DNA from: Thermodesulfobacteriota bacterium
GTDB lineage: Bacteria > Desulfobacterota > GWC2-55-46 > JADFVP01
Assembly: GCA_046753945.1 (NCBI GenBank)
Contig: JBHHUW010000003.1
Span: 1 to 46,277 of the forward strand
Direction: 5' to 3'
Length of the DNA: 46,277 nucleotides
The position numbers and the translations under genes were made by a program. Position 1 is the first letter of the stretch. Each line of letters starts with the position of its first letter. The notes below the pieces were generated by a model. That model was not told where the DNA came from and searched no databases. It worked only from the letters and a program-made list of their open reading frames with translations. Of the stretch, positions 1 to 31,878 are shown in pieces.

Positions 1-542
1 AGTATGGGGTGCACCCTTACGTGGTCCTCGCCCTCGGACTCGGATTTATACTGGTCCCAGAGCTCTGCGGGCTGGTCCTCGTAATTCCATTTAAAATCCT
101 CGTCACGGGGGGAAAAGACCCTCTCCTTTGCGCGAATGCCGTGCTCGTCCCGTCTTATTCCCAGAAGCAGGGCCTTGAAACCGTGCTCTGCGATGGTCTG
201 CTTCAGGGCATTGGTCTTGAGCTCGTTGCAGCAATCGAGCTTGCTGCCCTTGCCGGGCCCCATGCCGCCTGCAATGGACTCTTCGTTTCGCCCAATGATG
301 AGGTCGAGACCATATTCCTTGGCGTAGTGGTCACGAAACTCATACATCTTCTTAAATTTGTATCCCGTATCAATATGTATGACAGGAAAGGGAATCTTGC
401 CAAAAAAGGCCTTCTGGCATAACCACAAGAGGGTGGTGGAGTCCTTTCCCACAGACCAGAGAAGCGCTATGTCCTTGTACTTGGCATAGGCCTCCCTGAT
501 GATAAAAATACTCTTGTTCTCAAGCATTGTGAGCTGGTCCAT
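1..542 (-). CDS. cysD: Sulfate adenylyltransferase subunit 2 (PAPS-reductase/PP-loop family), runs off the window edge
   Basis: Not in the ORF track. Manual minus-strand translation from ATG at 542 gives MDQLTMLENKSIFIIREAY...LLWSVGKDST...PFPVIHIDTG...GIRRDEHGIRAKERVFSPRD...DQPAELW...HVRVHPIL, all CysD hallmarks. AAGGAG RBS precedes the start. Confidence 0.93.
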   Translation of the reverse strand, partial: MDQLTMLENKSIFIIREAYAKYKDIALLWSVGKDSTTLLWLCQKAFFGKIPFPVIHIDTGYKFKKMYEFRDHYAKEYGLDLIIGRNEESIAGGMGPGKGSKLDCCNELKTNALKQTIAEHGFKALLLGIRRDEHGIRAKERVFSPRDEDFKWNYEDQPAELWDQYKSESEGEDHVRVHPI

Positions 543-566: not shown

Positions 567-1919
567 TTAAGACGAAAAATAATCAAGTATGATGGCGGCA
601 AGTGACTCTATATGAAGTCGCTTGTCCGGGGCCGCCCGGTTGGGGAGGATAGAATGCGCGTCGTGCCTCGTATGCATGCCCGTGAACCTGCCGTTACCAA
701 AGACCTCCTCTTTCTTAAATGTGCTCTTAAGATCAAAGCCGTCGTTGGCAAGGCAGACCAGGTCAGGCCCCTTATCAGCCTCCTGGCCGCTGTATAGCTC
801 GTTATTTTCATATATCCGCTTTATGACATTCTCGCCCTCAAATGTAAGCGAAGCAAGGACCCGCTTTACCGCCTGAGTGACCCCTGCAACATCATCGGAG
901 CTAACCGCGCCCTCGGGGTACTTTCCCTCATGGTTCAGGTATATCCTTGCCGGCTCCATGGCAAAGGCCTTTGTGGGAGCCTTTATCTGCTCAAAATAAT
1001 CCCTGGACTCATCAAGATGGAGGAGGCCTTCTTTCTGAAAGAGGGTGTTTATGTAGACCTCTTTTTTTAGCTCCGTAAAGCCATGGTCCGACATGGTCAT
1101 AAAGAACCCCTCGCCGCCTGTAAGGTCATGAAAGCGGGCGAAGAGTGTGCCAATTATATCGTCAAGCTTCTTGTAAAAGTTAATAAAGCGGCCATGATAT
1201 TTATGTGTCTCGTCAAAGGCCGCGTCAAAGAAAAAGTGATGGAGCCGGTCTGTCTCCGTAATAACTGCGATAAAGAGAGCCCAGGGGTCCTCCACCATGA
1301 AGTGCTCGAAGGCCTCCACCCTGCGGTCAAGGACAAAGTCCACCTCCTCAAAAAAACCATCCGGGTCGGAGACGGCCTTTGTAGAGTCCACATCGGACCT
1401 GTAACCAATGGACTTCAGATAATCATAAGCCGAGGCAGGATAAGTGCCCTTTTCAAGGTCTATGCAGACAAAACCCGCCGTCAATATGCCGTTCATGGGC
1501 GCGGCCGGGTAGGTCTCCGGTACATTCATCACTACAGAGCGCAGGGGGTCAGGAAAGCGGTCTCCGTACCGGTTGGCAAGTGTGGATTTTTTCCCGCCGG
1601 CCGTGCCTCCGAGAATATCCCAGATAGAAGGAGCGCTTATATGTGAATAAGAAGGAAAGTACATGGAGTAGGCCCCGGGTTTCAGGTCCATGAAGCCGTA
1701 TATGCCATGCTCTCCCGGATTAGTGCCAGTCAAAAATGAAGCCCACGACGTTGATGATACGTCGGGTATGGAGGCGTCCATCTCGTGTAAGGTAAAACCG
1801 CCGGATAGTATCTCTTTTACGCGCGGCATAAGGCCCATATCCATATACTCTGAGACAAGGCCGCGGGAGACCCCGTCAAGCCCTACGGCAAGGCATCTTT
1901 TCTCTCTCTTTTCCGGCAA
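567..1919 (-). CDS. Alkaline phosphatase superfamily protein (type I phosphodiesterase/NPP-like, COG3379-like), short form without LGY tail
   Basis: Motifs GLDG, SIPDVSSTSWASFLTG.NPG.HGIYGF, ETDRLHH, MSDHGF, GMH; no signal peptide; TTG start after a G-rich RBS. Confidence 0.88.
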   Translation of the reverse strand: MPEKREKRCLAVGLDGVSRGLVSEYMDMGLMPRVKEILSGGFTLHEMDASIPDVSSTSWASFLTGTNPGEHGIYGFMDLKPGAYSMYFPSYSHISAPSIWDILGGTAGGKKSTLANRYGDRFPDPLRSVVMNVPETYPAAPMNGILTAGFVCIDLEKGTYPASAYDYLKSIGYRSDVDSTKAVSDPDGFFEEVDFVLDRRVEAFEHFMVEDPWALFIAVITETDRLHHFFFDAAFDETHKYHGRFINFYKKLDDIIGTLFARFHDLTGGEGFFMTMSDHGFTELKKEVYINTLFQKEGLLHLDESRDYFEQIKAPTKAFAMEPARIYLNHEGKYPEGAVSSDDVAGVTQAVKRVLASLTFEGENVIKRIYENNELYSGQEADKGPDLVCLANDGFDLKSTFKKEEVFGNGRFTGMHTRHDAHSILPNRAAPDKRLHIESLAAIILDYFSS

Positions 1920-2048
1920 AGGTTACCCCCTGTTTTAATAAAGAATTTGACCCGGCAGAGCGGGCATGCTGAGAAATGGTTTAAGATTCACATGATGAGA
2001 TAAGAGACGATGATTGAGGCCGGGCAAATACATCAACCTCATGAGAGG

Positions 2049-2081
2049 TCCGGGGCCCTACGGCATTAAGCCGGCCCCGGA
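2049..2081 (-). terminator. GC-rich hairpin downstream of the repeat-protein gene (possible weak terminator or mRNA stabiliser)
   Basis: TCCGGGGC...GCCCCGGA outer stem plus inner CGGC/GCCG stem; no clear U-tract on the minus strand. Confidence 0.35.
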
Positions 2082-2109
2082 ACGTTGCTAAAAACAAAAA
2101 ACAAGGCTA

Positions 2110-2895
2110 TTATGGCTGCATCCTCTTTTTCGCCGCGCCGGGATTGCTTCGCGCGCGTCTTACCTTGTCTGGATTATTCTTTATAGTCCCTCTGTTTCTA
2201 TAGGCCTTCTTCGATGCTTTTGGGTGCTTTGTCAGGGTACCTTTGTTCTTATAGGCTTTCTTGGAGGCCTTGGGATGTTTAGCGGCCCACTCCTTGTGCT
2301 TGTCAAGCTTCTTGGCCACCTTTGGGTTCTTCTTCAAATACTCCTTGTTCTGATAGGCCGCATCGAGCACCCTGGGGTTTTCTCTCAGAAACTTGTTGTT
2401 ATTATAAAGCTCCTTTGCCACCCTGGGATTCTTGTTAAGGTACTCCTTGTTCTTATATACCTCTACGGCCACATCGGGGTGATTGTTGAGCCATTTTCTA
2501 TCCGAGTAGGCCACCTTGGCCACTTCAGGGTGTTTGTTAAGCCACGACCTGTGCGAATATGCCCTTTTAGCCACATCGGGGTGGCTGTTTAGGTATTGGC
2601 GGTTTCCGTAAAAGGCCTTTGCGCTCTTCGGGTGCTTCTCAAGCCATACCCTATTCTTCAGCATGGAGTCAACCACCCTGGGATGGGCGTCAAGCCAGGC
2701 CGCGTTGGCAAATGCGGCATCAGCGGCAGCGGGATTATCAGCGAGCCACCTTGCGGTGGACTGATCATCTGGCATACCTGCTATCTCGGCAAGGACGGCA
2801 GGGTCGTCCACGGCAATGGCCGTAACGGGTGCAGTTAATCCGGCAAATACAACGGTCAGCAATACGACAAACAACCCTACAAGATGCTTTCTCAT
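2110..2895 (-). CDS. Secreted basic tandem-repeat protein of unknown function
   Basis: Sec-type signal peptide (MRKHLVGLFVVLLTVVFAGLTAPVTAIA), GGAGG RBS, then 12 consecutive 17-aa repeats. Confidence 0.85.
   Translation of the reverse strand: MRKHLVGLFVVLLTVVFAGLTAPVTAIAVDDPAVLAEIAGMPDDQSTARWLADNPAAADAAFANAAWLDAHPRVVDSMLKNRVWLEKHPKSAKAFYGNRQYLNSHPDVAKRAYSHRSWLNKHPEVAKVAYSDRKWLNNHPDVAVEVYKNKEYLNKNPRVAKELYNNNKFLRENPRVLDAAYQNKEYLKKNPKVAKKLDKHKEWAAKHPKASKKAYKNKGTLTKHPKASKKAYRNRGTIKNNPDKVRRARSNPGAAKKRMQP
2137..2748 (-). repeat. 12 x 51-bp (17-aa) coding tandem repeat, consensus approx. [WYF]Lxx[HN]Px[VA]AxxxYxNxx
   Basis: Residues 50-253 split exactly into 17-mers, e.g. WLEKHPKSAKAFYGNRQ / YLNSHPDVAKRAYSHRS / WLNKHPEVAKVAYSDRK / WLNNHPDVAVEVYKNKE. 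Confidence 0.9.
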
Positions 2896-2937
2896 TTGTT
2901 GTAACCTCCGTAGTTTAGATTAACACTTAATATCATA

Positions 2938-3726
2938 TTATACCTTTTTCAAGGTCCTTTTCAAAGAATAAAAGTTATGGAAGGCGCCCTTAATGGCCGT
3001 CCTGTAAGCAAGCCCTGTTGTAAGGTGAGCGCTCCCCACCCTCTTTAAAGAAAGAGGGCACTCCCTTGCCGGATGACCGGCAAAGGCCGCCTTAAAGCCC
3101 TGCCTCTTAAGCTCTGCCATGACCCGTTCGTCAAATTCTCCGTATGGATAACAAAAGATAGGAGCACTCACCCCGAGCCTCTCCTCAATGGCGCTGCGGC
3201 TCTGATTCAGTTCTCTCTCAAGGTCCTTATCAGAGAGTCTCGTAAGATGGGGGTGAGAGACTGAATGGGACTGGAAATCAATGCCATATCTCTCCATTTC
3301 CTTAATCTTATCCCATGTTAGGAGCGGCAAGACAGGTATGCCGGGATCTCTTTCCCACGTAGAGGCCCTGGCCGTGAAGCCGGTAACAAGGAAGATGGTA
3401 GCCGTGAAGCCGAACTCTTTTAAGAGAGGATAGGCTACCTCGTAATTATTCCATAAGCCATCGTCAAATGTCAAGACAACGGCCTTCTCTGGCAGCGGCG
3501 TCCCGCCTTCAAGGGCATCCACCATACGCGCCGCCGTAACAGTCTCGTAACCGAGCCCCTTGATAATCGTAAGATGCCGCCTGAATATGCCTGGCGCTAT
3601 GGATACGGGGGACCCGCTCTCATCAAAGGAGTGGTATGTAATAACGGCCGGCCGGCGTGAGGGCCGTAAGGCCCCAAGGCCGTAGAGGCCGAGCATGATG
3701 CATTGTTTGAATAGAGGTTTTAACAC
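2938..3726 (-). CDS. Polysaccharide deacetylase (CE4, IcaB/PgaB-like)
   Basis: ITYH, LTFDDG, QSHSVSHPHL and FCYPYG motifs. Confidence 0.92.
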   Translation of the reverse strand: MLKPLFKQCIMLGLYGLGALRPSRRPAVITYHSFDESGSPVSIAPGIFRRHLTIIKGLGYETVTAARMVDALEGGTPLPEKAVVLTFDDGLWNNYEVAYPLLKEFGFTATIFLVTGFTARASTWERDPGIPVLPLLTWDKIKEMERYGIDFQSHSVSHPHLTRLSDKDLERELNQSRSAIEERLGVSAPIFCYPYGEFDERVMAELKRQGFKAAFAGHPARECPLSLKRVGSAHLTTGLAYRTAIKGAFHNFYSLKRTLKKV

Positions 3727-4514
3727 TTTTTTCTGATAAGGGCCCGGTGCTTACGGTAGAAGAGTACGTATGACTTCGTATGCAGGTAGGCCATCTTGTT
3801 AAAAGGATTTTTTCGCGTAATCCCCTGCAGGAGATGCCTTACCACAAAACCCGGGTAAGCCACTACTTTCCACCCGCCCTTCTCCATGCGTGCGCAGTAA
3901 TCGGCGTCCTCGAAACCGTAAAACATGTTCTCGTCAAGGAGCCCCACCTTCTTTACGGCCTCTTTTCTTAATAACTGAAAGGCCCCTTCCACAAAATCCA
4001 CGACTCTCGGCCCGGTCCGTTGCCAGCTCTCAAGATGGTGTTCCCTTAATATTTTGCTATCGCGCACAATGCCGGCCATATTCAGTCTTCGAAGGAACAC
4101 ATGTATGGGCCTCGGATATGTCCTTGTAGAGGAGTGGATTACATTATCCTCCGATACGAGTGTGCAACCCAACAGGCCAACGTCCTCGTTGGAGTCCATG
4201 TAGGAGATAAGGTCGCCGAAATTCTTTGAGACTACCTCCGTATCGGCGTCGAGGATGAGGATATAACGGCCCGCGGCCTTCTCTAATAACTGATTGCGCG
4301 CCGGGGCCACGCCTCTATTCTCAGTATTATGAAAGAGTTTCACACCGGGATAGGCCTTTTCAACAGCCTCGGGGGTTCCATCCGTGGAGGCGTTGTCCAG
4401 GACCAGGACCTCGAAGTCAATATCATCACCTAAGCATTCATATAGAGACTTCAGACAGTTAAGGAGCAGGTCTCTACAGTCCTTAACTATAATTGTCACG
4501 GAAAGTTCCGGCAT
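3720..4514 (-). CDS. Glycosyltransferase family 2
   Basis: VLDNASTDGT, LILDAD, GLLDENMFYGFEDADYC; ATG at 4514 preferred over TTG at 4520. Confidence 0.92.
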   Translation of the reverse strand: MPELSVTIIVKDCRDLLLNCLKSLYECLGDDIDFEVLVLDNASTDGTPEAVEKAYPGVKLFHNTENRGVAPARNQLLEKAAGRYILILDADTEVVSKNFGDLISYMDSNEDVGLLGCTLVSEDNVIHSSTRTYPRPIHVFLRRLNMAGIVRDSKILREHHLESWQRTGPRVVDFVEGAFQLLRKEAVKKVGLLDENMFYGFEDADYCARMEKGGWKVVAYPGFVVRHLLQGITRKNPFNKMAYLHTKSYVLFYRKHRALIRKKC

Positions 4515-4586: not shown

Positions 4587-6200
4587 CTAAGGAGTGATAG
4601 TGTAGGGGGCTATGTCCTCGTCATAGCTTGTGCCCGTAACCTCGGCCCTGCCGACAATTTTATATGCGCCAGTGGGAATAGTGTGCGGGACGGTCTTTAT
4701 GAAGGGGGCGCTCACCAAGGTGAGTGCGCCTACATTTAATGTCTTCGAATTCAGTGTCACCTCGTGACCATCAGGGAAAACTGCAACTACGCTGGCATTG
4801 ACAGTATGTGTCGTGGAGTCGAGATTATCGATGGTAACGGTGTATGAGAGACTCCCGCCGCGAGCTACCGTCGTAGGACCTGTGGGTGTAATGGCCATGG
4901 TCACCACTGGCGGAGGAAGAAGGAAGGTGTTGTTGATGTTAAGACGGCCGCCAGTTCCAACGGTGAGTCCGGCTGGGTCCACACCGGCAAGCAGCATCCA
5001 CTTTACCTCGTTTACGGTGAGCGTCGGGTCTTTGGCCAACAGAAGGCTGGCCGCTCCCGCAACATGGGGCGTGGCCATGGAGGTTCCGTTATAACTGGCG
5101 TATGTGTTACCGGGAAGGGTAGAGAGAATGTTTACGCCGGGTGCGCCAAGGTCCACGGAAGTAAGGCCGTAGTTCGAAAACCAGGCCATGGAGTCATTAT
5201 GGTCCGTGGCTGCAACAGATATGATATTGGGAAGATCATATGCCGACGGGTACTGTGGGCTAAAATCCGTGTTGACATTGTCATTACCCGCGGCAGCGGC
5301 AAAGACGCTGTTCGAGGCCTCTATGGCGTCTTTTTCCGCCTGCGTGAAAGAGGTGCTCCCGTATGAGTTGTTTGATACCCTAACACCCATGTCCGCGTAG
5401 TAATTAACGGCGGCCACTATATCCGAGGAGGTTGCGGAACAGAAGGCACCGTAGAATACCTTGAAGACCTTAAGAGGCATTATCTTCACATTCCAGTTTA
5501 CGCCTGTGACGCCTATGCCGTTATTACCCACGGCCCCTATGGTGCCTGCCGTATGTGTGCCGTGCCCGTCGCAGAGGCCCTCGTCGTCAGAGGGGTCGTT
5601 GTCGTTACGGGCAAAGTCCCAGCCATGAACATCATCTACATAACCATTACCGTCATCGTCTATGCCATTACCGGCTATCTCGCCGGGGTTTGTGTATACG
5701 TTGGCGGCAATATCCGGGTGGTTCATATCCAGACCTGTGTCTATATCGGCTACTACCATGTTGGGGTTCCCCGTGGTGACGTTCCAGGCCTCAACGGCGT
5801 CGATATCGGCGTCAAAGGCGCCGCCTGTCTGGCCTGTGTTGTGAAGGCCCCAGAGGCTGCTGAACTGAGTATCGTTGGGCGTGTTATCCAGATACCTCAA
5901 GGCGTTGGGCTCGGCGTATTTAACGGCATTGAGGCCCTTCAGGATTCTTACCGCCCGCTTTACCGTACCCTCAGGCACCCTTACATGGAGGGCCTGTATG
6001 CGGGCGAACCGCTTGATCAGTTTACCCTTTACGCTCGAGAGCGCCCTATCCACCGCAGCCTGATCAACGCTGTCATTAAAACGTATAATCAGCTCTCCGG
6101 GAACATAGGCCGGACGATTCTGGCCGGAGCCCGCAAGAGCGGCCCCGCTTACAGCCATTATCATAATAATAATTAATAACACGTATCTCTTCCGTAACAT
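4587..6200 (-). CDS. Secreted subtilisin-like serine protease (S8) with prodomain and C-terminal beta-sandwich-like domain
   Basis: Catalytic triad VADIDTG / DGHGTHTAG / GTSMATPHVAG. Start reassigned to ATG 6200 (AAGGAGG RBS, signal peptide MLRKRYVLLIII...); the longer ORF overlaps the upstream gene. Confidence 0.95.
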   Translation of the reverse strand: MLRKRYVLLIIIMIMAVSGAALAGSGQNRPAYVPGELIIRFNDSVDQAAVDRALSSVKGKLIKRFARIQALHVRVPEGTVKRAVRILKGLNAVKYAEPNALRYLDNTPNDTQFSSLWGLHNTGQTGGAFDADIDAVEAWNVTTGNPNMVVADIDTGLDMNHPDIAANVYTNPGEIAGNGIDDDGNGYVDDVHGWDFARNDNDPSDDEGLCDGHGTHTAGTIGAVGNNGIGVTGVNWNVKIMPLKVFKVFYGAFCSATSSDIVAAVNYYADMGVRVSNNSYGSTSFTQAEKDAIEASNSVFAAAAGNDNVNTDFSPQYPSAYDLPNIISVAATDHNDSMAWFSNYGLTSVDLGAPGVNILSTLPGNTYASYNGTSMATPHVAGAASLLLAKDPTLTVNEVKWMLLAGVDPAGLTVGTGGRLNINNTFLLPPPVVTMAITPTGPTTVARGGSLSYTVTIDNLDSTTHTVNASVVAVFPDGHEVTLNSKTLNVGALTLVSAPFIKTVPHTIPTGAYKIVGRAEVTGTSYDEDIAPYTITP

Positions 6201-6223
6201 TTTATTCTCCTCCTTTCTTGATG

Positions 6224-7669
6224 TTAAAAGAGTTTCTTCATCATGGAGCGTGATGCGTAATAAAACTCCTTTGGATGTACCACGCGCCATAGATTGCGAG
6301 CTATAAACCGCGGTCTCAGATAAAAACTGAAGTTGGCATGGCGGACAAGGCCCTCGAGATCATCTGTGGAAAGATTGGGATAGCTGTGAATCGCCTCCTT
6401 TCTCACGTCCCTGGGCACATAATCGCCGTGAACAAACCAACCTTCTTTCTTTGCTATCTCGTAAAAATCCGTCCCCGGAAAAGGGCTTGCCAGGCTATAC
6501 ATTACGCCATCGGGATCGAGTTTTTTTACTATCTCTATATTTCTTAATATTGATTCCTTTGTCTCAAGGGGGCTTGAGCCGAGGAGCATATTGAGCTTTA
6601 CGATGATACCGTTTTCCTTGAGAAGCCTTATGGCCTCCTCTATCTTCTCTATCTCTATCTCTTTTTTAACGTACTCGAGGACAGGTTCCTCAAAGCTCTC
6701 TGCGCCTATGTCCACGAACATGCAATTGGCCTTTTTCATGGCCTTGATAATATTCTCGTTAAGATAATCAGCGCGGGCAAGACAACCCCAGCTCATACCA
6801 AGAGGGCCAATCCTCTCGCAGATCTCAACGGTCCTCTTCTCACCCCATGGAAACTGGTCGTCAAGGATATTGACGGCGCGAAACCCCTCGTCACGAAGTA
6901 TTTTAAACTCACGCTCTATGTTCTCCGGAGAGCGCTGTCTTACGGCGGGCTTGCTTCCACCGGAACCCTTCTTATACTCCAGCTCTCTGGCGAAAGAGAG
7001 AGAGTTGGGCACGCAGTATATGCACTTGTGGGGGCATCCTCTTGAGGTGAGGGCCGCTGTTACGGGCCTCACACCGAACTTGGGGTTATAGTACTTGCTC
7101 CTGTCTATAAGATGGCGCGCTGGAAATGGCAGCGAGTCAAGGTCATGAAGCAAGGGCCGTGAGTTATTGTGGACGGCCACACCTCCCTTCATATAAGATA
7201 GCCCCTCTATAGAGGCCATTTCGCTGCCCTTGAAAATGGCCTCGGCAAGCTCCGTTAGCGTCAGATCCATCTCTCCGCGTATGGCAAAGGAAGACTCATC
7301 GAGAAGGAATACATCCGTTGTATAGGTAGGCGCTGGCCCCACGAAGGCCACGGGCACATTGCCCCGGAGCTCCCTTATCAGGCCGTGGGCAATCCTGTCC
7401 GTCTCCACGGCGAGGTTTACCGTGTAAAAGCAGTACATATCACTATCATCGCCGGATAGAAAGCGGGTAAAATCCTCCTTCTGCCAGCCCTCTACCGGGC
7501 CGTCTATATAGCGAACCTCATATCCTGCCTCCTCAAGTACGGCGGCAGATGTAAGGGCGAATATATTGGGTATGGGGTATATGCCGTAATTACAGCCAAA
7601 GACCCTCTCAACGGGCTGATTGCCGTCAAGGGGCGGGGGCATTATGAATGTGATCTTCTTTCCACTCAT
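6224..7669 (-). CDS. Cobalamin-binding-domain radical SAM protein
   Basis: N-terminal B12-binding-like domain (VGPAPT, IRGEMD), TSRGCPHKCIYC cluster motif, PFPGT motif. Confidence 0.9.
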   Translation of the reverse strand: MSGKKITFIMPPPLDGNQPVERVFGCNYGIYPIPNIFALTSAAVLEEAGYEVRYIDGPVEGWQKEDFTRFLSGDDSDMYCFYTVNLAVETDRIAHGLIRELRGNVPVAFVGPAPTYTTDVFLLDESSFAIRGEMDLTLTELAEAIFKGSEMASIEGLSYMKGGVAVHNNSRPLLHDLDSLPFPARHLIDRSKYYNPKFGVRPVTAALTSRGCPHKCIYCVPNSLSFARELEYKKGSGGSKPAVRQRSPENIEREFKILRDEGFRAVNILDDQFPWGEKRTVEICERIGPLGMSWGCLARADYLNENIIKAMKKANCMFVDIGAESFEEPVLEYVKKEIEIEKIEEAIRLLKENGIIVKLNMLLGSSPLETKESILRNIEIVKKLDPDGVMYSLASPFPGTDFYEIAKKEGWFVHGDYVPRDVRKEAIHSYPNLSTDDLEGLVRHANFSFYLRPRFIARNLWRVVHPKEFYYASRSMMKKLF

Positions 7670-8875: not shown

Positions 8876-10513
8876 CTACTCCACATAACCAAGGTCACGG
8901 AGCCTCTTTCGCACCGCCTCTTCCTCCTCGGGCTCGTATCCGGCCGGGGCACTCTTACCATCGCTTGCGGAAGGTGCGGATTTGACGACATTTTTTTGCC
9001 CTTTCAGCGCCTTCAGAAGGACACTTCCATCCATGTCCGAGGGGACGCTGTAACCCATCAAATGGAGTATGGTGGGGGCCAGGTCCATGATGGAGGCACC
9101 TTTAATCTCACCGCCGCGCACCTCGGGGCCGCTTAAAAAGAGGACGCCGCTCTCACGGTGGTCTCCGCTTATGGTCCTGTGTTCCTCAGTAAGAAAACAG
9201 GGCGCAACCTCCTGGCCATTACCGGCGGTAAGGCCGCCGATGGCCGCATCAGGCCGCCACCTTACTATAAGGTCCGGGCTCATCTCCGTCATATCACCTT
9301 CGTAGACATCTTCTCTCTTTAAGACCCTCTCCACTACGGGCTCTCCGCTTTGCGGGTCCCTCGTCTCCATAAGCCCGCGTATAATCTCTTCCCTCAGGGC
9401 CTCGTACTCGCCGGGTTCCACGACCCCCTCGGGTTCCCTACCCTTCAGGTTTATATATATCCCTTCCCTTATACCGTCGGCAAATGCCCTGGTCTTGGCC
9501 CAGTCTATACTTGAAAAAAATACCCCCGACTGCACGCGGTCTCTTAACCCGGGAAAGAGGCGCAGAAGCCTCTCCTTTGTCTTGCGCTTGAACCTCTTCT
9601 CCACCTGCCGGTAAAGCCGCCCTGTAAGGGCCCTTTTATCACCTTCCATGAAACTCAGGTACCCGCTTTCCTCAAGCCAGCCGTTAAGGCAGAGGTTGGC
9701 ATATTGCCTGAACCCAAAACCATGGTCAGAGAGGACTATTACCGTAACATCTTCGGGCAGGGCAGCCATGATCTCGGCCATGGCTGTGTCTATCCTTCTG
9801 TATACCTCAGGTATGACCCGGCCATAGGGTGAGTCCTCATAATCAGGGGAACCTTTATCATAGAACTTCCAGAAGCAGTGCTGCGCCGGATCCGTATCCC
9901 TGAAGACAACGTTAAAAAAGTCCCAGGGATATTTTTTCATCAAGTAGAGCGTGGATGCCTTCCTGTTCTCTATGGACTCGTAAAGCAGCTCCTCTGCCCT
10001 GGCAAGGTCCCCGGCCATGACATGGCTCGTAATACCGGGCTCCATGATGTAACGGCCAAGGGCTCCCTTAAGCTCTTCGTAAAGCCCGGCGGGGTAAGTA
10101 AACCCCTTTGCCTCAGGCCCGGGGGACTCAAGCCCGGCCATAAGAAAGCCGTTGACCTTCTCTGCCGGGTAGGTCATGGGCACGTTGACAACTCCCACCC
10201 TGGCCCCCTTACCTGAGAGGATAGACCAGAGCGAGGCGGCCTTTCTGTCCGAGGCGTTTATGAAGCGTACGCCGTAGCAATCCCTCTTTTTTTCGTAAAA
10301 CTCGAATATTCCGTGCTTGCCGGGATTAACGCCTGTTAAAAAAGACGTCCACGCCGAGGGACTTATGAGGTTTGGCGTTGAGAGTAGCTCTCCAAAGGCC
10401 CCCTGGTCCATGAGCCGGGCGAAGGCGGGCAGCTCCCCTGCCTTGACCATGGGGGTGATGACATCAAAGGTGGCGCCGTCAACGCCTATAATAAACACTC
10501 TACGCTTCATCAC
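8876..10513 (-). CDS. Alkaline phosphatase superfamily protein (COG3379-like) with C-terminal LRDLGY tail
   Basis: GVDGAT, STPNLISPSAWTSFLTG, DTDPAQH, LSDHGF, SGDHR; ends YEPEEEEAVRKRLRDLGYVE. Confidence 0.9.
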   Translation of the reverse strand: MMKRRVFIIGVDGATFDVITPMVKAGELPAFARLMDQGAFGELLSTPNLISPSAWTSFLTGVNPGKHGIFEFYEKKRDCYGVRFINASDRKAASLWSILSGKGARVGVVNVPMTYPAEKVNGFLMAGLESPGPEAKGFTYPAGLYEELKGALGRYIMEPGITSHVMAGDLARAEELLYESIENRKASTLYLMKKYPWDFFNVVFRDTDPAQHCFWKFYDKGSPDYEDSPYGRVIPEVYRRIDTAMAEIMAALPEDVTVIVLSDHGFGFRQYANLCLNGWLEESGYLSFMEGDKRALTGRLYRQVEKRFKRKTKERLLRLFPGLRDRVQSGVFFSSIDWAKTRAFADGIREGIYINLKGREPEGVVEPGEYEALREEIIRGLMETRDPQSGEPVVERVLKREDVYEGDMTEMSPDLIVRWRPDAAIGGLTAGNGQEVAPCFLTEEHRTISGDHRESGVLFLSGPEVRGGEIKGASIMDLAPTILHLMGYSVPSDMDGSVLLKALKGQKNVVKSAPSASDGKSAPAGYEPEEEEAVRKRLRDLGYVE

Positions 10514-13295: not shown

Positions 13296-14957
13296 TCAGA
13301 TATATCCAAGCCCTTTCAACTTTTCCCATATCTGTTTTTTATCCTCCTCTGAGTAAGACGACACCCCTTCACCATTGCCGCCTGAAGGGCCGGCATTCTC
13401 CCCTTTCCTTGGTATATTCTTCTTGATAAACTCATCCTCGAAGATCTCCTTTAAGATATTTCCGTCCATTTCTTCAGGGATTGGCAGTCCCATGGCATAA
13501 AGAATCGTAGGTGTGATATCCGCAAGGGTCGCATGTTCTATCGTTGCGCCTCTTCTTATTACACCGGGCCCATTTGCCAAAAGTATTCCATTCAGGCGGT
13601 GTGTACCGCTGTGTTCAAAGTCTGAGGAGTCTATATAGAGCTTGTCTGCGAACACATCGCCATCACCGCGCTTCAGATTGCCCTGGGTATAATAGGCATA
13701 GTCTTTCCATTGAACAAGGATATCAGGCGCCCTGTCGGTGTAGTTCCCCGTGAAGATATCCTCCTTCATATGAACCTTTTCGACTATCATTGATGCAGAT
13801 TGCGGGTCTTCAAGCTTCAACAAACGCGCCTTAATCTCATTGCAGACTTCCCCGTACGCCTCTGGACTGACAAGGCCATCACGCTCTCTACCCTTGAGAT
13901 TCAGCGAAATATTCCCATACATCCCCCAGGAATAAGCTTTTGTCTGCAACCAGTCTATCTCTGCAAAGTAGGACATGGACTCCGTTCTGTTTTTAATGCC
14001 CGGGAACCTCGATTTTATCCAGTCTCTCTGGGTTCTCGGGAGATACTTCTTTGCCACGGTCTTGCCACCGTCGACGAAGTACTTTTTAAGCGGCTTTTTC
14101 TTGTAAACAAGGTAACCGTTCTTTTCGAGCCAGTTGTTAAGATTAACAACCCGCTTGAGTCTGCCTCCTCCGTGGTCTGACATTATCATTACGATGGTAT
14201 CCTCGCCGCAGTTTTCGAGCAGCGTACCAACTGCCTTGTCCGCCATTATATAGGTATCATGGATTATATTGCCGAACATCTCGGTCTCTTCATTTACTAT
14301 CCCCTGCGCCTTCTCTTCCATCTGCCTCCAGAACATGTGTTGCACATGGTCCGTAGAACCGTATACCACTACAAAGAGATCCCACTCTCTGGAATTCATC
14401 AAATATGTGCATGCGTCCGTACGATTGTTCACTACATGCTCGACGTGTTCAACCCTGTAGGCCGACATCTTCTTACCAATAGGAAACGTACCTCTCAGCT
14501 CATAAGCACCAATCTCTTTTACAAGCTCGTCGTAAAGTCCCTCCGGATAAGTAAAATTCGTATCAACGCTTGGGGAGTCAAAGCCGGAAATCATTACACC
14601 ATTGACCTCTTCCGGCGGATACGTGAACGGCACGTTGACAACCCCGACCTTTTTACCATAAGTGCTCAGCAACCCCCAAAGAGACCTTACCTTTTTGAAA
14701 CTGCCGTTTACAAAAGCCACTTCGTATTTGTCCGGAATCCTCTCTATAAAATCATAGATACCGTGCTTCCCGGCACCGCAACCGGTCATGAAGGTCGTCC
14801 AGGCTTGAGGTGTAGTAGGATGGAGCGTAGAGGTGAGTTCTCCGCATGCGCCTTCATCCATAAGTCTCGAAAGATTAGGAAGTTTCCCACTCTCTGCAAG
14901 AGGCCTTATAATGTCCAGCGTAGCCCCGTCAAGTCCGATCACTATTACTTTTGACAT
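13296..14957 (-). CDS. Alkaline phosphatase superfamily protein (COG3379-like) with C-terminal LKGLGY tail
   Basis: GLDGAT, STLHPTTPQAWTTFMTG, STDHVQH, MSDHG, SGTHR; ends YSEEDKKQIWEKLKGLGYI. Confidence 0.9.
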   Translation of the reverse strand: MSKVIVIGLDGATLDIIRPLAESGKLPNLSRLMDEGACGELTSTLHPTTPQAWTTFMTGCGAGKHGIYDFIERIPDKYEVAFVNGSFKKVRSLWGLLSTYGKKVGVVNVPFTYPPEEVNGVMISGFDSPSVDTNFTYPEGLYDELVKEIGAYELRGTFPIGKKMSAYRVEHVEHVVNNRTDACTYLMNSREWDLFVVVYGSTDHVQHMFWRQMEEKAQGIVNEETEMFGNIIHDTYIMADKAVGTLLENCGEDTIVMIMSDHGGGRLKRVVNLNNWLEKNGYLVYKKKPLKKYFVDGGKTVAKKYLPRTQRDWIKSRFPGIKNRTESMSYFAEIDWLQTKAYSWGMYGNISLNLKGRERDGLVSPEAYGEVCNEIKARLLKLEDPQSASMIVEKVHMKEDIFTGNYTDRAPDILVQWKDYAYYTQGNLKRGDGDVFADKLYIDSSDFEHSGTHRLNGILLANGPGVIRRGATIEHATLADITPTILYAMGLPIPEEMDGNILKEIFEDEFIKKNIPRKGENAGPSGGNGEGVSSYSEEDKKQIWEKLKGLGYI

Positions 14958-17624: not shown

Positions 17625-19670
17625 CTATGGCAGCGACACTGGAATTAACATGCCGGCCAGCTGGAAATCCTTTGTAAAGGAACCCGTGTAGATTACCCAT
17701 GCCCCGCTTCTGTTGCTTTGCCACGTGAGCTTTAATTCGTTGTTCAGGATGGCCATATCGGGACTGAGAGAATAGCTTATATCCTGAACAAGTGTCTTGG
17801 GAACAGACCAGGTGACGCCCCCGTCCACACTTTTCATGCCCTGGATATCACTGTTACCGGAGCCATAGTTTTCCCATGCAAGGAAGAGCTCTCCGCCACT
17901 GGACAATACAGACGGGTTACTCGAGCCAATTCCGTTATCGACGATAATCCTCTCCGGAGTAAAATTGATCCCGTCCGTACTCCTTGTGTAGAATATCTGG
18001 GGATACCCGTTCCTGTAATCGGTCCAAAAAAGATGTATGCCGTTTTGATCGACAACAGCTTGGGGGTTATAGGCATAACCACTGAGCGACGAGACAGGCA
18101 CCGGTATATCCCATGTCCTCCCTCTGTCGTGGCTTGTAGCTTTAAATATTCTCCACGAACCATTATTGAACATGTTGGCAAAGATCTGAATGTCTTTGCC
18201 TATGGGAAGGAATGTTAAAGACTGAACAAGGTATGTGTATGCATCGCTCTCGCCTACACTATTAACTCTAAGCTTCATTGTTGATATGGAGTGTATCTTT
18301 GTTTTCCCGAGCATGTCTCCGGGGAGCATGCGGCCTCTACGCGCCAGAAATAATTTCTGAGACTTTGCCACAAGATGGGGCTTTCCAGGATTATCCATAA
18401 CAATGTCCTGTCTCGTTGTCTCTACAACCGGCAAGGCTGTTGGCCGATCGGCAGACCATGTAATGCCATCGTCATCGCTTTTTTTAAGAAAAATACTCCA
18501 GTTATTATTTCTGTAGTCCTTCCACCCAAGGTAAAGATGGTTGCCATGGCCGGCAAATGCCTGGGAAGTAGCTCCGAAATTGTCCTTGGTCAACTGAACG
18601 CTTCCACTCCATGTCAGGCCGGCATCAGTGCTCCTCTTATAAAGTATCCTCCCGCCTCCAAGTCCATCGTCTTCCCAGACCAGATGGAGATTCAAAAGAG
18701 ATGGGACGATCTTCGGGTTCTTCGCTTCAGGGCCTATCGGTGGCGTGAGCGGGTTCACAAACATCGAGGAAAGGACCCTTCCATCTGCAAATGGCGTGCT
18801 AAAACCAAGAAACTCGCCTACAGTCGGGGCTATGTCAATAAGCCTTCCTCGCGTAGCAACTACGGCATTCTTTTTGATGTCAGGGCCAATGGCAAGCAAG
18901 AAAACTTGCTTGTCACCTTCACATATACCGCCGTGGTCATGGAAACCGCCATGCTGAGCGTCGTGCCTGCCATGGTCGGTTGTTACCAGCAGCGTAGTCT
19001 GATCCTTATAAAAAGGATCACTCTGAATCTTCTGCCATAGCTGATAGACCAAATCATCGGCCTTTTGAATTTTCAAAAGGTATGTGTCCCAATCCCCCTG
19101 GTGTCCGGCATAGTCCACATTACCGAAATTTGCAAATACCAGGGAGGGGTGATTTGTGTCCATTACATTAGCCAGTTGATCGTAAACCAGCTGGTCCTTA
19201 TCTCCTGGCGCGAAGAGTGAGGCTTTGTACGCAAGGCCATATCCTGGAAAGAAACTGTGGTCAAGATATCTCAAAAAGGTAATCTTGCCGCCTATCACCA
19301 CAGCTGTTTTTGTTTCAGGAATGTTCTTCTCCTTCCTGTAGTATTCAAAGAAGCTTGGGACGATGGGGCGGATGAAGTTATCTTTTACATTCGGCACCAC
19401 CTGATTCTTGCCTGTAAAGATTGATATATGGCCCGGGAGTGTAACCGTTTGACCTAAATTATAAAAATTTGTATATAATGTCCCCTGGGGTTTTAATATG
19501 TTGCCCATATTGGGGATATTATTGTACGTAGAATCGCCAAATGCTTCTGAGTATCTTAATCCGTCTATGACAACGACAAAGACATTTTTTGTCTGATAAC
19601 AGAAAGCCTTCGCAGGAATGAGGAATAGAATTAACGCAAAGAGCATGTATGAGAATATTTTCATAGCCAT
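17625..19670 (-). CDS. Secreted AlkP-superfamily domain fused to an Asp-box (BNR) beta-propeller
   Basis: Signal peptide; VIDGLR, QTVTLPGH, VDYAGH, TTDHGRH; C-terminal Asp boxes STDAGLTW, SDDDGITW, SHDRGRTW, SVDGGVTW. Confidence 0.82.
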   Translation of the reverse strand: MAMKIFSYMLFALILFLIPAKAFCYQTKNVFVVVIDGLRYSEAFGDSTYNNIPNMGNILKPQGTLYTNFYNLGQTVTLPGHISIFTGKNQVVPNVKDNFIRPIVPSFFEYYRKEKNIPETKTAVVIGGKITFLRYLDHSFFPGYGLAYKASLFAPGDKDQLVYDQLANVMDTNHPSLVFANFGNVDYAGHQGDWDTYLLKIQKADDLVYQLWQKIQSDPFYKDQTTLLVTTDHGRHDAQHGGFHDHGGICEGDKQVFLLAIGPDIKKNAVVATRGRLIDIAPTVGEFLGFSTPFADGRVLSSMFVNPLTPPIGPEAKNPKIVPSLLNLHLVWEDDGLGGGRILYKRSTDAGLTWSGSVQLTKDNFGATSQAFAGHGNHLYLGWKDYRNNNWSIFLKKSDDDGITWSADRPTALPVVETTRQDIVMDNPGKPHLVAKSQKLFLARRGRMLPGDMLGKTKIHSISTMKLRVNSVGESDAYTYLVQSLTFLPIGKDIQIFANMFNNGSWRIFKATSHDRGRTWDIPVPVSSLSGYAYNPQAVVDQNGIHLFWTDYRNGYPQIFYTRSTDGINFTPERIIVDNGIGSSNPSVLSSGGELFLAWENYGSGNSDIQGMKSVDGGVTWSVPKTLVQDISYSLSPDMAILNNELKLTWQSNRSGAWVIYTGSFTKDFQLAGMLIPVSLP

Positions 19671-19671
19671 T

Positions 19672-20388
19672 TTATAGCCTCCTGAGAATCATAAGCGATG
19701 CAAAATCAGCAAGAATAATACCTCTGTTTACGACCTCGATTCCAAGAGGGATCCCAGATGTTTTATAGTCTCCCGCCAGGCTAACTGCAGATGGGTCAGT
19801 CACATCAAAAAGCAACAGGTGCTCGCTGTTGGTTACATACAGGATATTGCCGTCTAAAACACCTTCGCGATTGATGCCATTAAGTGGTATTTGCAAGACC
19901 AAGACCGGTAAAGAAGGATCCGTAATATCATAGACATGCAGCCCGAAGTATTTATCTGTAACGTATGCCCGTTTATTTTTAATGGCTACAGAAGTTGAAA
20001 ATTTGAGTCCAGGGAGATTAGAGACCGGCGCAGGGCTTTTCGGGTCAGTTATATCAACTATCTTAAGGCCGGCCTCTCGGTCAGCTACATAGGCGTAATT
20101 ACCCTGCAGATCAACGGCCCATCCCCTTCCCCCTTCAAGGTAAAGCCGGCCGGTCAGTACCGGTGCGGCCGGGTTAGAGACCTCAAGTACACCAAACCCG
20201 TTCCAAAATGCTGTATATGCGGTGTTGCCCACAACCTTTACATCCGCAACGCCAGTCCATAACGCGCTTTGGAAATAAGAGACGGATTGCGATGTCTTTG
20301 ACCATGACAACGACGGCATGAGCAAGATGAGTAACAAGACAAGGGGCGCCGCTCTGCTCTTCGAAGACGCCTTAATCAATCTATTCAC
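19672..20388 (-). CDS. Secreted LVIVD-repeat protein (short)
   Basis: Signal peptide; about five repeats such as GNYAYVADREAGLKIVDITDP. Confidence 0.85.
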   Translation of the reverse strand: MNRLIKASSKSRAAPLVLLLILLMPSLSWSKTSQSVSYFQSALWTGVADVKVVGNTAYTAFWNGFGVLEVSNPAAPVLTGRLYLEGGRGWAVDLQGNYAYVADREAGLKIVDITDPKSPAPVSNLPGLKFSTSVAIKNKRAYVTDKYFGLHVYDITDPSLPVLVLQIPLNGINREGVLDGNILYVTNSEHLLLFDVTDPSAVSLAGDYKTSGIPLGIEVVNRGIILADFASLMILRRL

Positions 20389-20397
20389 ATCCTTTCC

Positions 20398-22294
20398 TTA
20401 TTTGAAATTAAGCAATATTACCGAAGAAAAATCCGCGATGACAATATCCTTTTTTTTGTTTACGACTACCCTGTGGCTTGGCCCCAGGGGTGTTATAATC
20501 CGCCACGTAGGCCGGCGACGCGGCATCTGAGACATCGAGTACGTAGAGACCTTTCTTGTCGGCAGTCACAAAGACACGAAGGCCCTTGACAAAAACTCTG
20601 AGAGCGTCTTTTAAAGGATATGATCCGACTTTTACCGGGCTGGATGGCAGAGAAATATCTATTACTTCCAGACCATTCAGATAGTCGGCAAGGTATGCGT
20701 AAGAGCCCGAGACGGAAAGGCTTGCCACATAACCGGTTGCGTTGTAGGAGCCTACATGACGAGGCCTGAGGGGGTCCGTAGCATCAAGGATCTCCAATGA
20801 CGTAAAACCACTTGATATATAAATATACTGCCCCTGGATAGCAATCTCTGTTGAGTAGCCAGATGTATTATACGTGCCTGCCAGAACCGGATTTGCAGGG
20901 TCGCTTACATCGACAATCTCGATGCCCTTAAAACCCTCTGCCACCACCGCGTAGTGGTTCCTCACCTGCACATCGATTGCAGCTCCGGCCGTAGCAAATG
21001 AGCCCAGGAGCAGCGGGTTTGCCGGGTCGCTTACGTCTATGATCTTCAGGCCGGAACCGCCATCGGCTGCGTAAGCTATTGTGCCATTTACGTCAACACC
21101 CAACATCGCCCTGCCGATGGTTTTCCCTTTCTTCAGTATTATGGCCTCGGGACCGGGCATGGCATAATTTCCAACATATCGGGGCACCGCAGCATTGGAT
21201 ATGTCCACGATGTGCAGCCCGCTTCTTCCTGCCATAGCATAAAGATAATCACCGCTTATATCCACATCGTAAAGCTCGTCTGAAACAAAATATTGAGATA
21301 CGTACATTGGAAGCGCAGGGTCTTGAACATCCAGCACAAGAAGTCCACCGGTCCAGCCGTCTGCAACGTAACAGTACTGCCCGTCAACGTATAAGTTGTA
21401 TGACCAATCAGCGGAATCATAAACACCGAGCTGAACGAGATTCATGGGGTCGGTAATGTCCAGGGTCCTTAGCCCTCGCTTGAGGTCCATCAGGTATCCG
21501 ATATTGCCAATTACGGAAATATCAAAGTAATCCGAGCCTGCTTCGTAATAATTATTTACAAGCTTAATATCCCTTTGATTTGAGATATCCAGGATATATA
21601 GGCCTAAATTCCTGTCAGTGACATAGAGGTACGGTGCTTGGACCGTTATGCCCGAATATCTGCCCTTGACTTTATAGGAATTGATAAGCGATGGATTTGC
21701 CGGCGAAGAAACATCTATAACGATCAAACCAACCAAATCGTCTGTAACAAAAGCAACGCCGTTATGTATATAGACATGAGTGGCCTTTTTAAACTTCAGG
21801 GACTTGACCAAAGCAGGGGCGGAGGGGACAGATACATCCAGTATTTCAAGAGACTGCTCTGCGGCCACATAGGCATAGGAGCCGTCAATAAAGATATCCT
21901 TAGCCGCCTCGGCCGTCTTATAACTACCTGCCAGGATAAGGTTGGCCCTGTTTGATATATCTACGATTACCAGCCCCGCGTCTCCGCTGGCCAGATAAGC
22001 GAAGTTACCTGCTACTTTAATAGCCTCCACCGTGCCCTGGATATAGACCTCGCCGATGGGGGTTGGCGTGTTAATGTCCGTCATCTCGAAAACCCTCATA
22101 CCATTCCAATAGGCTGTATAAGCGTAGTTTCCCCGCACCTCAATGTCAACAGGTCCGGCCCATAAAGCACTGCCTGTATATCCAAGCGTAACTGCACGGG
22201 CAGAGACCGGTGCATTCACGTAAATGAATACGCTCATACATGCAATAAAAAACATTATTGCTTTTCTACCTACATGGCCTGTGATCTTCTTCAT
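20398..22294 (-). CDS. Secreted LVIVD-repeat protein (long, probably double beta-propeller) with an apparent frameshift near the 3' end
   Basis: About 14 repeats of type GxYAYVAxxxxGLxIxDVSxPxxP; likely ATG at 22294. The in-frame stop is at 20408, but the homologous C-terminus (DIVIADFSSVILLNFK) is in another frame ending at 20398. Confidence 0.82.
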
Positions 22295-22358
22295 CAACCT
22301 ATAACCTATAACTCCTAAATTATTATGGTGAACGAGCTTGATGAAAAACACTCATACA

Positions 22359-23414: not shown

Positions 23415-23415
23415 A

Positions 23416-24426: not shown

Positions 24427-24435
24427 CACAAACCC

Positions 24436-30744: not shown

Positions 30745-31027
30745 GGCTCCGTCTGAGAGGGTCTTTTTCATAAAGTCCAATAGTTTTTCAGGTTCGCAGA
30801 TAAAAAGTTCGTCTTTTTATGAGCCAGTTCTGCTGAACTCGCATACAGCCTTGTAAGCCTGGAGAGTGCCCCCGAGGATGCCCGGTGACAAGTAAGACAC
30901 AGACCATATTCTTTCAAGAATACACAAGATGATTTTTGGCAAACGCTTTGTCCAACCGATGCTAATAATCCCGGCGACGAGCTACTGGAATTTTCCAGAT
31001 TATTGGCCAATCACGGCATTAATAATA

Positions 31028-31320
31028 TCACAAAACGCAAAACTCATCAATAAGCGCCCGTCTTTTAAGCACCCACGGGATAGTCATAAGGAAGGTCTTG
31101 AAATCGAGCCAGAGGGGGTGGTTTCTGGCGCAGATTACGTCGCAGCAGACCCAATCGTGAAACGAGGATGCGCCCATGCCCTGTATCTGCCGCATGCCGG
31201 TAAGACCGGGCCCTACCTTCAGCATAGTATTGAGCCAGCCGGGGCTGAACTTCATCCCGTCCATCACCAGCGGCCTTGAATCGCGCTCTTCAAGACGTTA
31301 AATGAGCTACGGGGTCAGGC
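31028..31320 (-). pseudogene. Decayed 3' fragment of a priming sugar-phosphate transferase (Bac_transf)
   Basis: RPLVMDGMKFSPGWLNTMLKVGPGLTGMRQIQG..SSFHDW..CDV aligns with RPLVMGEMKFSQSWRDIRLKVKPGVTGLWQVEG..PYFHDW..YDV of the 34862-36616 protein; the upstream part has stops and deletions. Confidence 0.8.
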
Positions 31321-31475
31321 GATTGCTCTGCCCGCCGGCCAGTACGGTAGCCTTGTTCACCTTCGCCCTTGAGATTACGAACATCATTCGCTAAACCGCC
31401 GCTCTACTTCACTGACAGATCCCGCCTCATAGGAGACCAGGCCGTAATCAACCTACAATAAGTAACATCCACAAA

Positions 31476-31740: not shown

Positions 31741-31857
31741 TTATATCCCTTGCTTAATTTACAAAACATACTTTACAATACCAATCTTCATCCCCCAAAG
31801 TAAGCCGCCATCAGATTTACTTGACTATTTAGAATAATTTAAATTGTAATGGAAATA

Positions 31858-31878
31858 AATCCCCCGAAAGGAGGGATT
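31858..31878. promoter_or_regulatory. Imperfect palindrome AATCCCCCGAAAGGAGGGATT (candidate regulator site or GAAA-loop hairpin)
   Basis: AATCCC/GGGATT arms plus CC/GG inner pair; partial copies at 31790-31800 and near 31924-31934. Confidence 0.3.

Follow-up and report, generated by a model that had tools for sequence, protein, structure and literature searches.

Twelve gap-free 17-residue repeats in an exported protein encoded within a polysaccharide locus of a Thermodesulfobacteriota bacterium

A 46,277-nucleotide stretch of Thermodesulfobacteriota DNA (contig JBHHUW010000003.1, positions 1 to 46,277; the whole stretch is called the window below) carries at 2110..2895 a gene for a putatively Sec-exported protein, P0001, that is built around twelve contiguous repeats of exactly 17 residues. 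It is a real gene under purifying selection. Modelling predicts its product to be an alpha-solenoid repeat protein with an unusually short unit, and profile comparison points to a distant tie to the MHB-like repeats. The reading of its function that we favour, held tentatively at a probability of roughly 40%, is that of a polycationic rod of the envelope or matrix that would bind an anionic polymer and work as a spacer or cross-linker. The gene had been pointed out in an earlier note on this DNA, which gave no strand; the coding strand is the minus strand.

The repeat array and its gene

The array covers residues 48-251 (204 residues) without any insertion or deletion. When the protein was compared with itself, the mean BLOSUM62 score was 2.44 at an offset of 17 residues, 2.11 at 34, 1.82 at 51 and 1.90 at the next multiple, and it stayed at or below -0.3 at all other offsets from 1 to 69. 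With the maximum over offsets 5-39 in 2000 shuffles as the null (mean -0.36, standard deviation 0.083, highest 0.076), the period of 17 reaches z = 33.6, so the twelve gap-free repeats described in the earlier note are fully borne out. The consensus proposed there is matched by the make-up of the columns: Pro stands at position 8 in 12 of the 12 units, Leu at position 4 in 10, an aromatic residue (W/Y/F) at position 3 in 10, Y or F at position 15 in 10, and Asn at position 17 in 9. Position 7 is His in eight units and Asn in the remaining four, and six units have Trp at position 3. Because the 17-residue array is free of gaps, the aromatic and basic residues that occupy fixed positions must align into ladders, as had been suggested.

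The features of the gene, in the coordinates of the window, are the following.

2110..2895, minus strand: whole open reading frame of P0001, 261 codons plus the stop at 2110-2112
2818..2895, minus strand: Sec-type signal peptide, residues 1-26, with MRKH, a 16-residue hydrophobic core and VTA, assigned by eye
2755..2817, minus strand: acidic N-terminal cap, residues 27-47, DDPAVLAEIAGMPDDQST, with five D/E and no K/R
2296..2754, minus strand: repeat units 1-9, residues 48-200, the confident core of the predicted solenoid, from the repeat analysis and AlphaFold2
2143..2295, minus strand: repeat units 10-12, residues 201-251, Lys/Arg-rich with net charges of +5, +6 and +5, modelled with lower confidence
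2113..2142, minus strand: C-terminal basic tail PGAAKKRMQP, residues 252-261, from the sequence
2905..2909, minus strand: Shine-Dalgarno-like GGAGG, 9 nt upstream of the ATG
2937..2964, minus strand: sigma-70-like TTGAAA-16 nt-TATAAT, 11 of 12 positions, at the extreme end of the upstream deacetylase gene

Charge is unevenly spread along the array. The first unit, ARWLADNPAAADAAFAN, is rich in Ala and Asp, and the net charges of units 1 to 12 are -1, 0, +3, +2, +1, +1, +2, +1, +5, +5, +6 and +5, with +3 for the tail. The two ends are therefore as the earlier note had them, an Ala/Asp-rich start and a Lys/Arg-rich finish, and what it had called a gradient between them is a step up after unit 8. 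Once the signal peptide is removed, the protein has a mass of about 27 kDa and an isoelectric point (pI) of 10.14; for residues 184-261 the pI is 10.96, with 28 Lys or Arg in 78 residues, and units 10-12 together with the tail hold 21 in 61 residues.

Units 10 and 11 had been described as near-identical and taken as a sign of recent expansion. Their likeness is confirmed (13 of 15 residues in the register of the earlier note, 12 of 17 in the register of the units), whereas a recent expansion is not supported: only 33 of 45 nucleotides are identical, the same codon is used at only 4 of the 13 identical residues, and both units occur in the ortholog of a genome of the same genus (G280). Since the synonymous sites are randomised and both units are present in that ortholog, the likeness is judged to be old and kept at the level of the protein. 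Tandem Repeats Finder detected no DNA-level tandem repeat within the gene, and nucleotide identity between units averages 48%.

The ortholog in G280 (locus L017, 3812-4528) is 69% identical over 232 ungapped codons, and its units pair with those of P0001 one to one, k with k. The ratio of nonsynonymous to synonymous substitutions (dN/dS) is 0.16 overall, at a dS of about 1.2, and amounts to 0.14 over units 1-9 and 0.11 over residues 201-232. The low ratio and the one-to-one pairing indicate that each unit is individually constrained, as expected for a folded rod. Near-identical DNA to window positions 1500-4500 was found in two runs of one study, X3 and X4, labelled as hydrothermal vent metagenome (59% of sampled words), the differences being scattered single-base changes; two further runs, X1 and X2, may be where the DNA of the window came from. 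Contigs of X1, X3 and X4 carry variants at the level of single-nucleotide polymorphisms only and show no polymorphism in the number of repeats. One low-depth contig (2.8x) has a joint that skips 178 nt (2229 to 2408), a multiple of neither 3 nor 51, which was treated as an assembly artefact or as coming from another organism.

That the frame is a chance open reading frame or a decaying repeat would agree with the missing DNA-level repeat and with the sequencing runs that contain the locus, among which no RNA run is listed. The probability of this explanation is practically negligible in view of the dN/dS of the ortholog, the 148 relatives in the database at E <= 1e-3 and the ribosome-binding site upstream; moreover, the plus-strand open reading frames that overlap the gene are shorter (<=122 aa) and lie opposite a conserved frame.

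The signal peptide and short acidic linker of the earlier note stand as well. Residues 1-26 have the n/h/c layout and contain no Cys, and hence no lipobox; they appear as a helix (3-20) in the AlphaFold2 model, and a similar hydrophobic N-terminus opens every homolog read. The 18-residue core of the acidic cap, DDPAVLAEIAGMPDDQST, is identical in the G280 ortholog, and its part MPDNQNT is seen again in a homolog from another genome (G049). The promoter is a consensus match only, since seven such sites were found in a 2.2-kb scan against 2.2 expected.

Predicted fold and kinship of the 17-residue unit

AlphaFold2, run on a 36-sequence alignment, gave a model with a mean predicted local distance difference test (pLDDT) of 84.7 and a predicted template modelling score of 0.66, with blocks at 87-98 over residues 41-210. 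In this model each unit forms a 6-residue helix (positions 1-6), a one-residue break at His/Asn 7, a helix of 8-9 residues that starts with the Pro (positions 8-16) and a second break at Asn 17. The acidic cap is modelled as a helix over residues 32-39 (block pLDDT 87-98) and units 10-12 as longer, 16-residue helices with a pLDDT of 52-79. The same helix pattern was obtained behind the EF-hand domain of a canonical relative, P0004 (pLDDT 79.9). By stacking, the units are predicted to form a narrow alpha-solenoid rod, acidic at its cap and flexible and polycationic at its end, and the two models agree with the short-helix solenoid that had been foreseen. His and Asn alternate at both helix breaks, which would fit helix capping better than ligand binding.

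A search of the Protein Data Bank (PDB) with Foldseek gave zero matches at E <= 1e-3, the best ones listed being designed helical repeats at TM <= 0.32. VIA-align, run on 48,161 representative chains, found solenoids of the HEAT/ARM/TOG type only, the best being 4p6z_B (Z 8.4, root-mean-square deviation 4.3 A over 149 residues) and the others at Z 6-8, a range that the tool gives as generic for helical repeats. P0001 resembles the HEAT/ARM alpha-solenoids (AP-1 beta1 4p6z_B, beta-catenin 2gl7_A, TOG domains) in that its helix pairs are predicted to stack at right angles and build up a superhelical rod, and differs from them in its 17-residue unit with helices of 6 and 9 residues; a HEAT or ARM unit has roughly 37-47 residues. 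HEAT, ARM and TPR families of Pfam have no match in P0001 at E <= 10. In the ESM Atlas the best feature match reached 0.77, under the level taken as more than a lead. A homodimer prediction with two copies of residues 27-261, run without controls, scored 0.00 against a mark of 0.42 and weighs neither way on self-association. If the predicted fold is right, the helical-repeat architecture of this natural protein would be very compact and perfectly periodic at 17 residues, a matter for structural biologists and for designers of repeat proteins.

The unit is shared by a family of proteins. A scan of 1.84 billion representatives yielded 148 proteins at E <= 1e-3, 44 of them at E <= 1e-10, and phmmer compared P0001 with ten relatives at E values of 8e-33 to 9e-14. 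Among the proteins of at most 650 aa, 40 with at least three motifs exactly 17 residues apart were collected; their 195 units have the consensus (R/K)x[W58 F22 Y16]L89 xx H85 P98 x V53 A67 K47 x L45 Y51 x N57 (figures in per cent), where position 7 was limited to H or N by the search pattern, which bears on the value for His. P0001 has the most units of this set, 12 against 3-7 in the other 39, and long forms of the array exist elsewhere (L001, L038). A typical member consists of a signal peptide, an EF-hand-type head of about 100 residues, the 17-residue units and a charged tail. Pfam was run on 52 of the 102 hits of at most 650 aa, and EF-hand families matched 20 of the 52, a DxDGDG loop being visible by eye in others; the analysis covered one of the 53 longer hits, P0020. 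The charged tails consist of KHPxxxKKxY 14-mers or DRREDVRD repeats, in some members both, and a Lys/Arg-rich C-terminal tail is present in P0002-P0004, P0007, P0008, P0010, P0011, P0013 and the proteins of L001, L030-L032 and L038.

P0001 shares with the family the exact 17-residue tandem units in the [WFY]LxxHP phase and the highly charged C-terminal extension. With the EF-hand-headed relatives (P0002-P0011 and those of L001, L002, L018, L030-L032 and L038) it has in common the unit, the signal peptide, the basic KHPxxxKKxY-type tail and the predicted fold; it differs from them by a 21-residue acidic cap in place of the head of about 100 residues, by more units, and by the lack of adjoining genes for an extracytoplasmic function (ECF) sigma factor, an anti-sigma factor and a DUF3106 protein. 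No EF-hand family of Pfam matches P0001 at E <= 10, and residues 27-47 take the place of that domain. The head is also absent from the G280 ortholog and from the 167-aa homolog of G049, and all three have instead a short acidic start with MPD(D/N)Q(S/N)T.

The family is rare, patchy and without a described function. It was found in 3 of 400 other genomes sampled from its own phylum, in 7 of 401 from the phylum of an Omnitrophota metagenome-assembled genome (MAG) at E <= 1e-8, four of them strong, and in 4 of 401 from that of a Planctomycetota MAG at E <= 1e-20. A collection of species representatives added six loci (Hydrogenedentota, Goldiibacteriota, Planctomycetota, Omnitrophota and an unclassified MAG), a metagenome scan gave 3 short loci only, and the gene is single-copy in every genome checked. 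The literature searches made turned up no paper on the 17-residue family, which is not proof that none exists.

Some relatives have more complex architectures. In the homologs at L030 (8707-10350) and L031 (3380-4912), of 510-547 aa, six 17-mers are followed, in this order, by a Pro/Gly linker, about twenty mixed-charge DRREDVRD repeats and about eight HPxAAKKxYRAA 14-mers, and DRRED repeats alone end the relatives L018, L009, L010, P0019 and P0024. P0020 (1194 aa) has 34-residue AWLDAHGE repeats of the type FVYRAWLDAHGEVALVQEKLLAWVKQHGETQEAR, each of which looks like two 17-mer-like halves; the database hits of 800-2000 aa resemble this type.

As far as comparison at the sequence level goes, no curated family covers the 17-residue array, in line with the earlier note, which did not recognise one. 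The nearest are PF16525 (MHB) of Pfam, at 31.6 bits against a cut-off of 27.4 (E 1.9e-7), and TIGR04529 of NCBIfam, at 32.1 against 32, both of which are marginal passes. In an hhalign comparison, the family and the multi-repeat proteins that score 40-65 bits on MHB were related with a probability of 98.8% (E 5.4e-17, 166 columns), and a distant kinship with MHB-like repeats is likely. P0001 and the MHB family (type member Rv0203 of M. tuberculosis) are alike in being exported and all-helical and in having a recurring [FWY]-L-x-x-H-P-x-[VI] helix-break motif; they differ in that the MHB domain stands singly, with about 77 residues, and P0001 has a 204-residue array of exact 17-mers.

This kinship raises the question of whether P0001 binds haem (or a metal) at multiple sites, with an aromatic/His pair in each unit, as a relative of the mycobacterial haemophore Rv0203. 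Beside the two database scores and the hhalign result, it would be in keeping with the 85% of His at position 7 of the family units and with the spacing of aromatic 3 and His 7, which equals that of Tyr59 and His63, two of the haem ligands of Rv0203 (Tyr59, His63 and His89; PMC13764973). Several results speak against it, and we regard it as improbable. Three partial stretches, which cover profile positions 17-63 of 77, add up to the Pfam score, the equivalog TIGR04530 (Rv0203) reaches 19 bits against a cut-off of 120, and a six-frame search of the genome with PF16525 gave nothing at E <= 0.01. PDB sequence searches with P0001, the family profile A1, P0080, P0035 and profile A4 gave nothing significant, with Rv0203 (3MAY) unlisted at E <= 10; 3MAY is also outside the 50 best fold matches of Foldseek and VIA-align, although absence from such a list does not exclude the fold. 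Tyr3 and His7, the spacing of Tyr59/His63, occur together in one of the twelve units (unit 4), six units have Trp at position 3, and the alternation of His and Asn is that expected of capping residues. The thresholds of Pfam and NCBIfam would thus label P0001 as haemophore-related, with little support for haem binding here; if the predicted fold is right, it would explain in structural terms the widespread [FWY]LxxHP motif, which triggers haemophore annotation outside mycobacteria.

Other candidate families were rejected. The hits to the RecA C-terminal family and to BRK are single-motif matches, the former being WLKDNPETAKEI. DUF3106 (PF11304), the protein encoded in the same operon as some relatives, is exported, basic and made of Pro-punctuated helical repeats with conserved Trp and Leu and a period, by eye, of about 20-22; hhalign gave its kinship with the family a probability of 1.7%, and PF11304 has no match in P0001.

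Gene context and readings of function

The gene lies within a continuous string of minus-strand genes that runs from 30780 down to base 3, between a polysaccharide deacetylase gene (upstream) and a gene for a PF01663 enzyme, all co-directional. The string contains export and assembly genes of an exopolysaccharide (EPS) locus, namely Poly_export (Wza-like), Wzz/GNVR/AAA_31 (Wzc-like), a flippase of the MurJ/MatE type and Wzy_C, together with several glycosyltransferases, methyltransferases, two radical-SAM enzymes, two LVIVD proteins, an S8 subtilase, a CE4 deacetylase, five PF01663 enzymes and a terminal CysD fragment. In G280 the order PF01663, repeat protein, polysaccharide deacetylase, GT2, S8 subtilase, B12-radical-SAM, GT4, PF01663 is kept. 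The locus is specific to the genus: a genome of the sister genus (G060) is without the repeat gene, and its deacetylase is only 34% identical. The copy without an EF-hand in this EPS island suggests that the module may have been re-used for envelope or matrix structure.

In the mechanism that we propose, P0001 would be a Sec-exported, non-enzymatic structural or adaptor protein. An acidic cap helix would be followed by nine 17-residue helix-turn-helix units stacked as a narrow alpha-solenoid rod, with W/Y3, L4, P8, V10, A11, A14 and Y15 in the core and H/N7 and N17 at the two helix breaks, and the rod would end in about 60 residues of which one-third are Lys or Arg. The protein would be a derivative of the EF-hand-headed family that lost its head and, in this genus, came to sit in a Wzx/Wzy-type polysaccharide locus, perhaps under a promoter of its own. 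Its action would most likely be electrostatic: the ladders of basic residues at positions 1 and 12, together with the basic C-terminal third, would attach to an anionic envelope or matrix polymer, the foremost candidate being what the surrounding locus makes, and the rigid rod would serve as a spacer or cross-linker. This putative binding of a polyanion and the putative role as a matrix scaffold are read from three things, namely charge, export signal and local gene context.

A number of observations weigh against the polycationic rod. In a diderm, a Sec signal alone takes a protein no further than the periplasm, short of the matrix. The model of P0001 in the ESM Atlas is poor (pLDDT 0.53), so the fold relies on AlphaFold2 with a shallow alignment, and in that fold the conserved aromatics are probably core residues rather than platforms for stacking sugars. 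Some relatives have mixed-charge DRREDVRD repeats in place of the basic tail, which means that members of the family can do without a polycationic tail. Any effect of the neighbouring CE4-type deacetylase on the charge of the local polysaccharide would be in the positive direction. The sulfated polymer that the earlier note had considered finds no backing: neither of the sulfotransferase families PF13469 and PF00685 turned up in this genome (G000, 57% complete, where absence is weak evidence) or in the complete G280 (100%), and the APS kinase family PF01583 gave P-loop-sized matches only (33-44 of 152 positions), in G280 only. A further point concerns the neighbourhood of the homologs, compared at 15 other loci with a clear member and readable flanks (L001, L002, L003, L004, L005, L006/L034, L009, L017, L018, L019, L030, L031, L032, L038 and L041); L039 and L040 (G820; EF-hands, two motif hits) and L008 and L010, which are too short for context, stand outside the count. 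The EPS context recurs among the 15 only at L017, from the same genus, and an ECF sigma factor and/or a zf-HC2 anti-sigma factor lies within three genes at seven (L002, L004, L009, L018, L030, L031 and L032). The EPS neighbourhood anticipated in the earlier note thus holds in this genus and gives way outside it to loci without an EPS export context, which tells in part against that note's interpretation.

These neighbourhoods support a different explanation, in which P0001 would be the periplasmic part of an envelope-stress or ion-sensing circuit, for example as a partner of a membrane anti-sigma factor or as a chaperone-like effector, and its placement in the EPS locus would be incidental or regulatory. 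DUF3106 is encoded co-directionally in five of the seven ECF-linked loci, and the typical order is fixed: sigma factor, anti-sigma factor, a small acidic secreted open reading frame, DUF3106 and the EF-hand/17-mer protein. L004, L030, L031 and L032 come from one phylum, so the seven loci are not independent; they represent at least three lineages, namely Omnitrophota MAGs, a Goldiibacteriota MAG and a genome of the window's own class. A functional precedent for the canonical relatives is the Caulobacter protein CaBP, which is reported to be a periplasmic protein of 133 aa with three EF-hands that acts in a circuit with the ECF sigma factor SigV and whose loss raised matrix production (PMC13171946). 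The likeness extends to Sec export, EF-hands, genetic ECF coupling and the effect on matrix; the abstract describes no 17-residue array for CaBP (PMC13171946), and P0001 has no EF-hand.

For P0001 itself the signalling explanation, the main rival of the polycationic rod, is weakened because the EF-hand head is lost and ECF and DUF3106 genes are missing nearby, and we consider it on the whole doubtful. All seven ECF-linked members that could be read carry an EF-hand-type head or are cut before it, whereas the trio without an EF-hand (P0001 and the homologs of G280 and G049) has no ECF gene nearby. ECF sigma factor, zf-HC2 anti-sigma factor and DUF3106 genes are all absent from the 46-kb window, and searches for DUF3106 came up empty both in this genome (57% complete) and in the complete G280. 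At the four Planctomycetota loci, and likewise at L001, L005 and L019, ECF genes and an EPS export context are both lacking, the four Planctomycetota loci being a further point against the signalling explanation. Adjacency to ECF, anti-sigma and DUF3106 genes is therefore frequent, not defining, for the family. Scattered glycosyltransferases at L001, L003, L006, L038 and L041 are too common to count as evidence.

The operon is of interest in its own right. It recurs, with genes for an ECF sigma factor, a zf-HC2 zinc-finger anti-sigma factor, a small acidic secreted protein (EFLESLEFLEE motif), DUF3106 and the EF-hand/17-mer protein, at L030 8707-12552, L031 1281-4912, L004 151-3229, L032 8746-11066 and L018 9745-12660. 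The family thereby draws attention to an operon that several uncultured phyla share and that appears to be unstudied, since the literature searches made turned up no paper on it.

A surface adhesin or mineral-interacting polycation, which would stick cells or matrix to negatively charged minerals, was also considered. The composition of a Lys-rich, Cys-free, exported rod and the near-identical DNA in the vent metagenome runs (X3 and X4) would be compatible with such a role. There is no specific evidence for it, no outer-membrane secretion or anchoring signal was seen, and relatives occur in groundwater-type MAGs as well; its chances appear slim. Functions outside the readings listed here are given roughly a fifth of the probability.

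The polycationic rod can also be taken further, to a more detailed scenario that we judge rather unlikely as a whole. In it, the 17-residue unit would be a natural alpha-solenoid repeat not recognised before and unusually short, with one 6-residue and one 9-residue helix per turn. An envelope-signalling protein would have lost its Ca2+-sensing head in this lineage, and the bare polycationic rod would have been recruited to a polysaccharide cluster as a ruler or cross-linker, its basic residues, spaced once per 17, registering with the repeating anionic groups of the exported polymer or with a mineral surface at hydrothermal vents. If this recruitment were true, a single rod module, used again and again within the family, would connect envelope signalling of the ECF type with the architecture of the matrix.

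Other features of the polysaccharide string

Several genes of the string are worth recording independently of the repeat protein. Directly downstream of the EPS string stand a CysD-like PAPS_reduct fragment at 3-542 (minus strand of the window) and, at the matching place of L017 (148-1542), a CysN-like GTPase of the EF-Tu type. Four paralogous PF01663 genes (type I phosphodiesterase/nucleotide pyrophosphatase, 450-553 aa) lie on the minus strand at 567-1919, 8876-10513, 13296-14957 and 24436-26088, and the same polysaccharide locus holds an AlkP-superfamily/BNR fusion at 17625-19670, an unusual dosage of one enzyme family; two of them are also kept in L017.

A radical-SAM/SPASM enzyme beside a GNAT-like protein (22359-24429) is followed by two LVIVD-repeat beta-propeller proteins (19672-22351), all on the minus strand, conceivably a module for peptide maturation or for modifying sugars. 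The longest open reading frame of the S8 subtilase with a fervidolysin-like prodomain (4587-6290) overlaps by 67 nt the end of the gene for the B12-binding radical-SAM enzyme (6224-7669), both on the minus strand, and the true start of the subtilase is probably further downstream; the pair is conserved in G280. Rfam found no family in the whole window. Where the minus-strand EPS string meets plus-strand genes, the switch region carries a C-terminal fragment of IS66 at 34375-34779 (plus strand), and about 1.8 kb of it (31010-32793) contains short open reading frames only, with no Pfam hits.

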